From NCBI GenBank assembly GCA_017404545.1, contig JAFRCC010000022.1, positions 8,750-72,749 on the forward strand: a stretch of 64,000 bases of DNA. The letters are read 5' to 3'. Positions 24,435 through 25,899 of the stretch are shown here, piece by piece. The stretch is from Clostridia bacterium (GTDB taxonomy: Bacteria > Bacillota > Clostridia > TANB77 > CAG-508). Position 1 is the stretch's first letter. Each line of letters begins with the position of its first letter. A model generated the notes under the pieces. That model searched no databases. It had not been told where the DNA came from and saw only the letters and a program-made list of their open reading frames with translations. The translations under genes were made by a program, and so were the position numbers.

Positions 24435-25727
24435 TTAATATCTTTCAAAAATCTCTAAGTCTTCCACTGGAATAACCTTATCCATTGCTTCAATCTCATC
24501 CTCTACTATAATTGATTTTTCATCCAACTGAATACCACACCAGTCACAATTCCATAACTTAATATTATCATCATAAAGCAATTTGCATATTGATGATTCG
24601 TATGCATATTCCCTATTATACTTTAAAGTTATTCTTTGCATGAATACTGATAAATAATCCGTGTTAGGAATTTTCTTAAATTTTCTATTAATAGACTCCA
24701 AAATCTTATATAATGTTTCTTCGTTTTCATAATATAATAATTTGCTTAATATAGCCGCACAACTCTGATAAGCCTTTGTATTGTTATACATTATATCGAC
24801 AACTATGCTTATCAGAACTTCATTACAATCTGGCTTATTTTTCAGAGGTTCAATAAGCTCTTTGTATAAATTATTTAATAATGTAATGGTTCTTCCTGCA
24901 TTAGGATAATCTATTGAAAAAAATCTAATTTTTAATAGATTTTTTTGTATACTTATATTTTTATTAATTTCAAAATCAAGTGATGCAATCTTCTCTTTTT
25001 TGATAGCATTAGATATAATATCGTTTGATAATTGTGTCTTTTGTGCATTTAACTTCATATTTAGTTTAGATAGTTCCTCAGATATAACTTTAATAATTTC
25101 ATTTATATCTTCTTTTTGATTTGCAAATACTCTATAATCATCCCTATATCTAAGTATCTTATAGTCATTAATTCCTCTTTGAGCTAATTTTTTGGATATC
25201 AGTAAATCACCATATCCTAATACACATTCCGCTATAAAATCCATTAATGTACTTCCTTGTGGAATGCCATTGGTTTGTCCATATGACATATTTTGTATTA
25301 CAGAATCAATAAGATTTCCAATATGACTTATGTCTCTATTGCTCTTAGCAAATCCAAGTCCATGAACAGCCCATGCAATTGAATGAGTATATATTGCTCC
25401 ATAACAATCTACAACATCTGTTATTCCTATGTATTCATAGTCCAACGCAAACATTATTGACTGCTGCTCAATTTCATTCCACCAATTATTTATTGTGGCC
25501 CCTTTATCTTTATTTTTAGATGTTGATTCAACTAGGTCACTACAACATATTATGTTTGGATTTTTCTTAAATTCTCCAAAACGAATCTTTATAGTGTTCC
25601 AGTTATTTTTCTTGGTTATTTCATTAACAAGATATACATACAAAATGGGATTTATAAGCTGAAACTTTCTCCATGCATATTTTCCATCCTTATTATGATA
25701 AAATTTATAATTTACATCATCCAACAA
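24435..25727 (-). CDS. Reverse transcriptase, abortive-infection / defence-associated type; N-terminus probably continues into ORF 25717..25899 through a frameshift in an A9 run
   Basis: RT motifs NGIPQGSTLMDFIAECVLGYGD and YKILRYRDDYRVFA (YxDD-type). The upstream 60-aa ORF MKILDMTEKEAKQYF... is in the +1 frame. The junction is the homopolymer at 25733-25741 (nine A on the coding strand). Confidence 0.65.
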   Translation of the reverse strand: MLDDVNYKFYHNKDGKYAWRKFQLINPILYVYLVNEITKKNNWNTIKIRFGEFKKNPNIICCSDLVESTSKNKDKGATINNWWNEIEQQSIMFALDYEYIGITDVVDCYGAIYTHSIAWAVHGLGFAKSNRDISHIGNLIDSVIQNMSYGQTNGIPQGSTLMDFIAECVLGYGDLLISKKLAQRGINDYKILRYRDDYRVFANQKEDINEIIKVISEELSKLNMKLNAQKTQLSNDIISNAIKKEKIASLDFEINKNISIQKNLLKIRFFSIDYPNAGRTITLLNNLYKELIEPLKNKPDCNEVLISIVVDIMYNNTKAYQSCAAILSKLLYYENEETLYKILESINRKFKKIPNTDYLSVFMQRITLKYNREYAYESSICKLLYDDNIKLWNCDWCGIQLDEKSIIVEDEIEAMDKVIPVEDLEIFERY

Positions 25728-25899
25728 ACCTGCTTTTTTTTAGAGTTGTTTTTGATAGTTGTTTCTTTTTAATTTCTGTATCCACAAAACTTAATAAATT
25801 TGAAAAATCGAAATATTTTGGTAAGTCTAGAGAACAATAACTAGAGCTTTTCAAAAAATATTGCTTAGCTTCCTTTTCTGTCATATCTAATATCTTCAT
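25717..25899 (-). CDS. Probable 5' part of the RT gene (separated by a frameshift)
   Basis: The 60-aa ORF ends 8 nt inside the RT ORF. The A9 run at the junction would allow a single-nucleotide slip to fuse both frames. Confidence 0.45.
   Translation of the reverse strand: MKILDMTEKEAKQYFLKSSSYCSLDLPKYFDFSNLLSFVDTEIKKKQLSKTTLKKSRFVG

Follow-up and report, generated by a model that had tools for sequence, protein, structure and literature searches.

An Abi-P2 polymerase gene broken at a run of eight adenines in a Clostridia defence island

We analysed a 64-kb stretch of the chromosome of a Clostridia MAG (the window, 28.5% G+C), in which a defence island adjoins a type II-A CRISPR-Cas9 system and a polysaccharide cluster. 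Within this island, the ORF list of the window holds two minus-strand ORFs in different frames, one of 60 aa (25899..25717) and one of 430 aa that has a TTG start (25727..24435). Direct reading and three-frame translation showed that the two ORFs overlap by 11 nt and meet at a homopolymer (Table 1), which confirms the original prediction that the N-terminal 60 codons lie in another frame and are joined to the rest through such a run. The run itself had been given as nine A at 25733-25741; it is A8, position 25733 being a G. The reverse transcriptase (RT) motifs that had been claimed were located on the minus strand, QTNGIPQGS at 25277-25251 and the catalytic YRDD at 25148-25137, and the second frame encodes a fingers/palm RT-like domain followed by a C-terminal helical domain.

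Table 1. Features of the broken gene and its immediate surroundings (window positions).
Feature	Position	Strand	Remarks
Spacer 5' of the Abi-P2 gene	25900..25967	-	68 nt; GGAG ribosome-binding site 8 nt before the ATG
60-codon ORF	25717..25899	-	codons 1-55 are the conserved Abi-P2 N-terminus (helices alpha1-alpha2, priming loop)
A run, frameshift site	25734..25741	-	8 A on the coding strand
Rest of the Abi-P2 gene, second frame	24435..25733	-	Ala56 through the stop codon (repaired-protein numbering)
Zinc-domain gene	23739..24401	-	220 aa; not part of the Abi-P2 system

The last five codons of the 60-codon ORF (SRFVG) are out-of-frame read-through past the A run and end at a TGA (25719-25717), and the frame of the RT has a TAA at 25742-25740 that overlaps the run. 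Joining the two frames takes the removal of one A (A7) or the addition of two, equivalent to the ribosome shifting by +1 and not by -1. The A7 version reads ...TTLKK-AGLLDDVNYKF... and forms a single ORF of 487 codons, encoding a protein of 487 aa, to which we refer as the repaired protein. Taken as an independent gene, the 430-aa ORF has the TTG at 25727 as its sole possible start, with a GCAGG 1-4 nt upstream that would be too close to serve as more than a poor ribosome-binding site. The corresponding NCBI entries are MBQ3409288.1 ('RNA-directed DNA polymerase', 429 aa) and MBQ3409289.1 ('cobalt transporter', 60 aa), and they should be read as the two halves of one Abi-P2 gene.

The repaired protein matched the 489-position PADLOC AbiP2 profile from end to end, its residues 2-486 aligning to positions 6-485 (E=3.4e-180), and the runner-up profiles were UG14 (E=1.7e-45), Drt6 (7e-43), Drt4 (6e-38) and AbiK (8e-25). 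It also matched E. coli Abi-P2 in the PDB (7r08_A, E=3.2e-87, residues 2-454) and Pfam RVT_1 (E=4e-11), and it is 35% identical to the prototype P2-EC30 RT across 99% of its length; the NCBIfam Drt4, Drt3b and Drt5 scores were far under their cut-offs. An AlphaFold (AF2) model of the repaired protein had a pLDDT of 90.9. When this model was compared with 7r08 by Foldseek, the TM scores were 0.85/0.85 and the alignments to the 7r08 chains spanned 503-510 columns; TM scores were 0.66 for DRT6, about 0.55 for AbiK, and 0.41 or less for DRT2, DRT9 and the retron RTs. The model is helical over approximately residues 317-424, where a C-terminal alpha-helical (HEAT-like/alphaRep) domain would replace the thumb. 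RYRDDY lies at residues 250-255, and R250, R252, D253, D254 and Y255, as well as QTNGIPQG, are invariant in 25 sequences. The profile, the 7r08 match and the predicted fold bear out the earlier assignment to an Abi/DRT-type RT and narrow it to Abi-P2: the locus is a single Abi-P2 gene (UG/Abi class 1) that is full-length once repaired. Identities as a group II intron, retron, DRT2 or DRT9 RT were ruled out by the profile and fold scores, and membership of AbiK, DRT4/UG15, DRT6/UG12 or UG14 was rejected on scores 130 or more orders of magnitude worse than that of AbiP2. The gene is a member of Abi-P2 by descent, and the allele as sequenced encodes no complete protein. The membership is in itself ordinary, Abi-P2 proteins being already well known as anti-phage RT-like DNA polymerases.

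The closest characterised system is E. coli Abi-P2, which is encoded by the P2-like prophage P2-EC30 (Odegrip 2006, Figiel 2022). Like it, the window gene has a YRDD active site and a Tyr at the position of the priming Tyr61, and it is a single gene without an ncRNA. Unlike the prophage gene, it lies in a chromosomal defence island and is broken by +1A between the priming tyrosine and the polymerase; the window protein is also shorter at the N-terminus, where the E. coli protein has about 32 additional residues. AbiK of Lactococcus lactis, DRT4/UG15, DRT6/UG12 and UG14 belong to the same superfamily, with weaker profile matches and TM scores of 0.54-0.66. AbiK and the other class 1 UG/Abi proteins presumably share the chemistry, namely tyrosine-primed, template-independent DNA synthesis.

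We then compared the gene with its relatives. The full-length relatives listed are about 480-516 aa long and all cover the 60 N-terminal residues, and the residues directly after the A run (A-G) align with A-G of the closest relative, P0002. These two observations, together with the end-to-end profile match, show that the two frames do not lie side by side by chance. At each of the 82 related loci the ORF is unbroken and at least 489 aa long (mostly 489-553 aa), and a frame switch at the loop that holds the run was found in no relative, neither at these 82 loci nor among 120 listed homologues. Other short proteins among the 120 were all explained by contig ends or a scaffold gap; the latter is the case of P0034 (440 aa), an apparent second Abi-P2 truncated in the same loop, whose contig has a run of N there. 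The loop varies in length and sequence, and since AT-rich relatives often carry in-frame A7-A8 runs there, it is a natural site for slippage mutations.

The putative priming tyrosine is Y29 (codon 25815-25813), which lies inside the 60-aa ORF. It aligns without gaps to Tyr61 of 7r08_A; Tyr46 of 7r08_A also aligns to a Tyr, which confirms the numbering. The AbiP2 profile match begins at residue 2, and Y21, P27 and Y29 are invariant in 25 relatives. In E. coli Abi-P2, the Y61F mutant was unable to polymerise DNA (PMC9508834). The A run falls in a lower-confidence loop of the AF2 model (residues 41-60, pLDDT about 70), so that the break sits in a variable, flexible loop just past the priming tyrosine and separates Y29 from the catalytic YRDD.

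By analogy with E. coli Abi-P2 and Lactococcus AbiK (PMC9508834, PMC8632793), the intact enzyme would form trimers or hexamers, use as primer the hydroxyl of the tyrosine on its N-terminal loop (alpha2-alpha3), and make random-sequence DNA without a template or an ncRNA; phage infection would then lead to abortive infection, as with T5 for the prototype. This enzymology is that of the characterised homologues, carried over to the intact protein. In the allele as sequenced, one extra A would have been added to a former A7 run encoding Leu-Lys-Lys-Ala. Translation would stop five codons past the run and give a 60-aa peptide holding Y29, and the polymerase part (YRDD and the helical domain) would be left with a weak TTG start and without the primer residue. 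Spontaneous +1 slippage on the run would yield at most a trace of full-length protein. Because the Y29 peptide and the polymerase are encoded apart, and the polymerase has only the weak TTG start, we infer that the allele is most likely inactive, either as a recent pseudogene or in an OFF state.

Next, we asked whether the A8 is real. The identical A8 is present in three assemblies, namely the window MAG, Logan SRR12529045 (contig L001) and ENA ERZ27256811 (L084), the last as a k141 contig seen in 2 samples, and every copy found shows 100% identity across as much as 12.7 kb. No intact version was found among the 15 billion proteins searched. Exact-protein look-ups returned only L001 and L084, the copies identical to the window, and no allelic series, and a search of JGI metagenome contigs and IMG/VR with the flanks of the run and 6-11 free bases between them gave 0 matches to alleles of other length. 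Runs of this kind are frequent: the window has 114 A/T runs of at least 7 bases, 30 of them with at least 8, and the length of the tract is not beyond what is expected from a composition of 28.5% G+C. Within the intact long ORFs of the window there are 74 A/T runs of at least 7 bases, of which 14 have at least 8; all are in frame, including those in the 1306-aa Cas9. A scan of every homopolymer of the window for single-base repairs (+/-1) by which ORFs would be fused gave no further homopolymer frameshift that could be demonstrated. The repair at 33556-33563 fuses a flippase to a TPP enzyme and that at 14832-14837 a HigB-like toxin to an HTH/ImmA antitoxin; both were rejected as joining separate genes, and a repair at 49925-49931 gave a junk-like junction. 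At the end of a KAP NTPase gene, repair of a T8 run (15900-15907) would add 102 aa and does not improve the profile score.

A sequencing error, phase variation and a programmed frameshift can all be put forward for such a break, and the evidence leans to a plain mutation. The locus is probably an ordinary Abi-P2 gene with a genuine, recent +1A mutation, in an inactive or OFF allele. Because the gene is flawless apart from the single A, with every family-invariant residue kept, the lesion would be either very recent, an artefact or tolerated. Speaking against a plain mutation, the three assemblies may share the same or related read sets, so their independence is not proven; also, ribosomes are intrinsically prone to slip on an A8 run with Lys codons, and some full-length protein is possible. 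We consider it unlikely that the Abi-P2 gene is in reality intact, with A7 in the genome, and that the extra A is a homopolymer miscall in the consensus. A single-base break in a homopolymer, the perfect conservation of the remainder of the gene, and copies so identical that they may come from one study or one set of reads are consistent with a miscall, but the A8 was recovered by different pipelines, the runs of 7 and 8 bases elsewhere in the long ORFs of the window stay in frame, and consensus errors at 8 bases are rare on short-read platforms. A phase-variable contingency gene, in which replication slippage toggles between A7 (ON) and A8 (OFF), would allow a population to balance protection from phage against the cost, or the autoimmunity, that an abortive-infection enzyme brings. 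The position of the run inside an ORF, in a loop that tolerates length change and carries A7-A8 runs in AT-rich relatives, would suit such a gene, as would the otherwise intact sequence and the location within a defence island. Phase variation is nevertheless improbable here: A8 is the sole allele across the assemblies, no intact allele is present in the protein collection, A8 is commonplace in this DNA with a tract that is not over-long for its composition, and none of the 82 relatives was caught in an OFF state. Phase-variable homopolymers are known in defence genes such as the type I/III restriction-modification genes mod/hsdS of Haemophilus, Neisseria, Campylobacter and Mycoplasma. The window gene resembles these, and no more than resembles them, in that a defence gene has a mononucleotide run within its coding sequence and the length of this run determines whether the protein is made; unlike them, it has been seen only as A8 (in the window, L001 and L084), in a tract no longer than many others here.

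It is very improbable that the site is one of programmed recoding, at which a defined share of the ribosomes moves by +1 on A-AAA-AAA-A, or the RNA polymerase slips, and both the 60-aa and the full-length product are made by design. After slipping by +1 on the run, tRNA-Lys can again pair perfectly, and the zero-frame TGA five codons past it leaves little aberrant sequence. However, neither the site nor the frame switch is conserved in the 82 relatives and the 120 listed homologues, the zero-frame codons after the run are AGC AGG and not a stop, no Shine-Dalgarno-like stimulator lies upstream of the run, and no stimulatory structure was seen, the 101 nt around the site folding with z=+0.52. 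When transcription slips in A/T runs, most of the resulting changes are +1 insertions (PMC5574713), which would leave the frame broken at a site that needs -1. A functional split enzyme, in which the 60-aa peptide with its priming tyrosine binds the 430-aa fragment non-covalently and supplies the primer in trans, is scarcely credible. The cut lies between structural elements, in a loop that is flexible and modelled with low confidence, and proteins split at such places can often still assemble; the 11-nt overlap of the ORFs could allow translational coupling; against this, the second ORF has only its TTG start with the SD-like GCAGG too close, no other split Abi-P2 was found (P0034 being a scaffold gap), and AbiK priming has been described as acting in cis (PMC9508834). 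Overall, that the A tract acts as a selected switch between ON and OFF or as a site of low-level +1 recoding, or that the 60-aa peptide is a detachable trans primer, appears decidedly improbable. If true, a switch or recoding would silence, in most cells, an abortive-infection polymerase that is potentially self-toxic, and any of the three would be a mode of regulation undescribed for an Abi/UG polymerase; in this sense the allele is an unlikely candidate for an abortive-infection gene switched by a homopolymer. The break falls exactly between the primer tyrosine and the catalytic core, and the allele therefore offers a natural test of whether Abi-P2 priming must act in cis.

The flanks of the gene leave no room for an ncRNA, as had been proposed from an upstream distance of about 70 nt. 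The upstream spacer measures 68 nt and the downstream one 33 nt, and neither folds better than shuffled sequence (z=+0.69 for the upstream spacer). Rfam matches were collected over 19000-29000 at E<=1 and none was relevant; 'miRNA' matches at 27485-27558 fall on a terminator hairpin and not on an RT ncRNA. Neither the structured ncRNA nor the RT group of the ncRNA-dependent defence RTs (retrons, DRT2, DRT9, DRT10) was found here. The absence of an ncRNA is expected because Abi-P2 polymerises DNA template-free from its own tyrosine (PMC9508834), and it is therefore no puzzle. No neighbour of the gene in the window has a homologue beside the 82 related Abi-P2 loci by tblastn, and 98 of the 137 flanking ORFs around those loci are singletons. 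With no conserved partner and no ncRNA, Abi-P2 at this locus is stand-alone.

We also analysed the gene downstream, which had been described as an unusual companion of the RT, 15 nt from its stop. That gap holds only for a start at TTG 24419, which has no Shine-Dalgarno sequence; ATG 24401 follows an AAAGGA, is the start called on the Logan contig (220 aa), and leaves a gap of 33 nt. The protein has an N-terminal signal or anchor, a Ser/Thr/Asn-rich linker and a C-terminal H-C-C-C zinc domain of approximately 50 aa (about 23742-23891). It is predicted to be exported and is possibly a lipoprotein (...LLFGSC). Against Pfam Ada_Zn_binding (PF02805) the zinc domain scored 16.2 bits (E=0.01; cut-off 23 bits), and a PDB phmmer search with the domain returned no Ada chain and only a chance match to ribosomal L32. 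A word-index homologue search with the 56-aa domain gave one match only; an exhaustive search of representatives gave 5333 homologues, most of which carry the domain at their C-terminus. H182, C186, C215 and C218 are invariant in the homologues. Despite the sub-threshold score of the window protein itself, the presence of an Ada-type domain in this downstream, same-strand protein is backed by 21 of 33 sampled homologues, which match Ada_Zn_binding at E<=0.001.

The role of the zinc-domain protein as an RT companion did not hold up. Neither a homologue (tblastn) nor such a zinc motif within 4 kb was present at any of the 82 other Abi-P2 loci, and AbiP2 has been described as a stand-alone multi-domain protein (PMC9226505). 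The two genes just lie close together along the same strand of a defence island, and the zinc-domain neighbour is not to be read as a new RT partner. In the sampled homologues that match Ada_Zn_binding, the domain is fused to secreted nucleases or to MBL, PG-binding, Big_2 or SLH domains. The Ada-like zinc domain is a common module at the C-terminus of secreted proteins. Like the secreted Firmicute Ada_Zn_binding proteins, the window protein has an H/C-x3-C...C-x2-C-x-P pattern at its extreme C-terminus; unlike them, it has no catalytic domain, only the low-complexity linker, and stays below the Pfam threshold. The first ligand of its zinc domain is a His, not the Cys of Ada_Zn_binding.

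A single-base homopolymer frameshift parts the primer tyrosine from the polymerase in this Abi-P2 gene, a member of a known family in an uncultured Clostridia genome. The original prediction of an Abi/DRT-type reverse transcriptase (RT) could be narrowed to Abi-P2 by profile, solved structure and predicted fold. The repaired protein, the 487-aa product obtained by removing one A, matched the PADLOC AbiP2 profile with E=3.4e-180 (residues 2-486, profile positions 6-485 of 489), and the next PADLOC groups (UG14, Drt6, Drt4, Drt3b and AbiK) gave E values between 1e-45 and 1e-25. 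Pfam detected only a generic RVT_1 domain, and NCBIfam Drt3b, Drt4 and Drt5 scored far under their cut-offs. The best solved-structure match was 7r08 (E=3.2e-87, residues 2-454 against 34-498), the Abi-P2 of E. coli prophage EC30, whose gene (AM157365.1) showed 35% identity over 99% of the length in tblastn. An AlphaFold2 model built from 25 relatives (mean pLDDT 90.9, pTM 0.91) also had 7r08 as its top structural match (TM 0.85 in both directions, E=4e-34), followed by DRT6 (TM 0.66) and by DRT4 and AbiK (about 0.55). On these matches the repaired protein represents Abi-P2 at full length. It belongs to a very large family, with 4306 of the candidates scored reaching E<=0.001; the best 120 of these 4306 matches are 481-516 aa long, four shorter entries apart, and the full-length entries among them span the 60 N-terminal residues, indicating that the 60-codon ORF encodes the genuine N-terminus of the enzyme. 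The 'cobalt transporter' label that this 60-aa fragment carries at NCBI (MBQ3409289.1, 25717-25899, minus strand) is a misannotation.

The two ORFs overlap by 11 nt in the ORF listing, and their frames join at an A run. The predicted break at a homopolymer was thus correct, but its length was not nine: direct counting on the coding strand gave 8 A (25734-25741), 25733 being a G. In the RT frame, a TAA at 25742-25740 overlaps the beginning of the run, and the first frame continues past it as AAA AAA AGC AGG TTT GTT GGA to a TGA stop at 25719-25717. Removal of one A (...CTA AAA AAA GCA GGT TTG...) yields a single 487-codon ORF (...TTLKK-AGLLDDVNYKF...), so that a ribosome would need a +1 (or -2) shift, and a transcript the loss of one A or the gain of two. 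The TTG is the sole possible start of the 430-codon ORF, and the SD-like GCAGG, 1-4 nt from it, is too near. We infer that the polymerase fragment is made in small amounts at most, and without the primer residue.

Abi-P2 and AbiK, both thumbless RT-like polymerases, form trimers or hexamers and make random-sequence DNA, with no template, from the protein's own tyrosine hydroxyl (PMC9508834). The priming residue of AbiK is Tyr44; in Abi-P2, where Tyr46 and Tyr61 both lie on the alpha2-alpha3 loop, Y61F showed no DNA polymerisation and Y46F still polymerised (PMC9508834). The prototype Abi-P2 blocks phage T5 and requires its YRDD region (PMC8632793). The alignment with 7r08 starts gap-free, and chain residues 46 and 61 both land on tyrosines, confirming the numbering. 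The counterpart of Tyr61 in the repaired protein is Y29 (LPK-Y-FDF), which, like Y21 and P27, is invariant in the 25-sequence alignment. The frameshift falls at residues 54-56, the stretch most variable in length and sequence among relatives, and the model has its lowest confidence at residues 41-60 (pLDDT about 70), between helix 33-45 and strand 64-69. The break therefore leaves the primer residue on the 60-aa peptide and YRDD with the helical domain on the other fragment. Mestre et al. (PMC9226505) place AbiP2 with the class 1 UG/Abi groups whose multi-domain proteins work stand-alone. The lack of space for an ncRNA, remarked on earlier, agrees with this template-free chemistry, in which none is needed. 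Rfam returned nothing near the gene over 19000-29000 at E<=1, and the 68-nt upstream (z=+0.69) and 33-nt downstream (z=+0.01) spacers folded no better than shuffles.

We consider it probable that the eight-A allele (A8) arose by a real +1A mutation of recent date and is dead or OFF. Its rivals stay alive because the remainder of the gene is flawless. One of them, an artefact, is unlikely: A8 is found in the NCBI MAG (where each gene half has its own protein record), in the Logan assembly of SRR12529045 (100% identical to the window over 12,747 nt), and in ENA ERZ27256811 k141_514571, a contig from a different assembly, seen in two samples (100% over 986 nt). Moreover, intact ORFs of at least 200 aa in the window, including the 1306-aa Cas9, contain 74 A/T runs of at least 7 and 14 of at least 8; homopolymer errors are not widespread in the window. 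An intact 487-aa version was not found in a collection of 15 billion proteins, and the 429-aa fragment is alone in its cluster. A systematic +/-1 repair scan of the window revealed no other demonstrable split gene. The KAP NTPase gene has a T8 (15900-15907, minus strand) 20 nt ahead of its stop. The loss of one T would add 102 aa and lengthens the PADLOC alignment with no better score, leaving a second homopolymer frameshift there as no more than a possibility. Deleting one A from an A7 at 49925-49931 (plus strand) would join two function-unknown ORFs of 172 and 268 codons, but the translation at the junction is junk-like, and these are probably two genes.

Abi-P2 genes were uninterrupted in 82/82 related loci from species-representative genomes and in the closest relatives, and the three further short proteins within the best 120 matches end at contig ends or a scaffold gap. 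The same loop in AT-rich relatives often carries in-frame runs, A8 in two loci (L025, L067) and A7 in six (L004, L007, L028, L035, L069, L070), which makes it a natural target of slippage mutation. Selected phase variation, for which the otherwise perfect gene would also speak, is doubtful, and no conserved frame switch was found in the loop among relatives. That absence and the 82 uninterrupted genes also weigh against programmed recoding, which we regard as very unlikely: there is neither an SD-like stimulator nor an RNA structure near the A run (101 nt around it folded no better than shuffled sequence, z=+0.52), and transcriptional slippage at A/T runs mostly produces +1 insertions (PMC5574713), which would not restore the frame here. 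Least likely of all is a functional split enzyme. That trans-priming, recoding or a selected switch operates at the primer-polymerase linker is, overall, quite improbable.

The gene lies in an array of defence genes on one strand (see table). Such short same-strand gaps are typical of these islands and are no evidence of a functional operon.

Features of the defence island around the Abi-P2 gene
Feature	Position	Strand	Remarks
Cas1 and Cas9, type II-A	8350-13127	minus	Cas9 of 1306 aa
PD-Lambda-2_B-like HTH/ImmA protein with HigB-like toxin ORF	within 8350-21222	minus	
KAP NTPase, PDC-S20/PifA-like	within 8350-21222	minus	
PDC-M03 A/B pair, HipA-like	within 8350-21222	minus	
DUF2806	within 8350-21222	minus	
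HNH nuclease and DUF4238 genes	between DUF2806 and zinc-domain protein	same-strand array	
Zinc-domain protein, 220 aa	23739-24401	minus	adjoins Abi-P2
Polymerase ORF, 430 codons	25727..24435	minus	TTG start; frame differs from 60-codon ORF
Catalytic YRDD	25148-25137	minus	
N-terminal ORF, 60 codons	25899..25717	minus	ATG start, GGAG in front
200-aa protein	25968-26570	minus	no Pfam or PADLOC match
Hypoth_Ymh/PD-Lambda-3_B-like HEPN protein	26603-27448	minus	PD-Lambda-3_B E=5e-60
Hairpin	27449-27562	minus	-34.8 kcal/mol, z=-6.1

The 200-aa protein may be a divergent partner of the PD-Lambda-3_B-like system rather than RT-related. PDC-M03B may be truncated, since its 122 aa match no more than the first half of the 232 positions in its profile. 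The hairpin, long, near-perfect and followed by a U run, stands between a flippase gene and the Ymh gene, after a polysaccharide-synthesis operon, and is likely an intrinsic terminator bounding the island. The consensus terminator scan missed it, and it was the source of chance Rfam 'miRNA' matches.

For the zinc-domain gene the most likely start is the ATG at 24401: AAAGGA precedes it by 9 nt, and the identical Logan contig has the same start call (220 aa). This start lies 33 nt past the RT stop; the 15-nt gap originally reported fits only a TTG without an SD. Basic at its N-terminus, the protein continues with a hydrophobic stretch to LLFGSC, which would fit export or a lipoprotein, then a linker rich in Ser, Thr and Asn, and lastly a domain of about 50 aa at the C-terminus. 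Its domain scored 16.2 bits against Pfam Ada_Zn_binding, under the threshold of 23, but 21 of 33 sampled proteins with the domain matched at E<=0.001, supporting the predicted Ada-type zinc domain; His182, Cys186, Cys215 and Cys218 are invariant. The module is common: an exhaustive search gave 5333 representative proteins, nearly always with the domain at the extreme C-terminus and often duplicated, and the sampled carriers were secreted endonucleases and metallo-beta-lactamase-fold, PG-binding, Big_2 or SLH proteins. As a companion of the RT, however, the protein did not hold up. At the 82 other Abi-P2 loci, tblastn with it and with six further neighbours from the window gave no match, and a motif scan for the domain within 4 kb of the RT genes was equally empty; the protein is not linked to Abi-P2. 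A 48-aa stand-alone ORF (21307-21453, minus strand), 58% identical to its zinc domain, is a second mini-domain copy in the island, without a signal peptide.

The flanks of the relatives are heterogeneous, 98 of 137 flanking ORFs being singletons. The only neighbour to recur was an S-subunit-like gene of type I restriction-modification, placed immediately upstream in 13/82 loci (L008, L015, L018, L047, L049, L056 and 7 others), assigned by Pfam Methylase_S on the L008 member. It closely abuts Abi-P2 in most of the 13, with a 4-nt overlap in seven, and Schlafen/AlbA_2, RhuM-like or Fic-like genes often lie downstream; Abi-P2 thus appears to be a frequent passenger within type I R-M operons. The closest relative, P0002 (67% identity), likewise lies at the end of a polysaccharide cluster, suggesting that the two share an insertion hot spot for defence genes. 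In its two loci (Logan SRR15970520 and SRR15970516), Abi-P2 comes right after a cluster with a Polysacc_synt flippase and FrhB_FdhB_C, and the genes that follow, for a 347-aa protein and an AAA+ ATPase, differ from those of the window.
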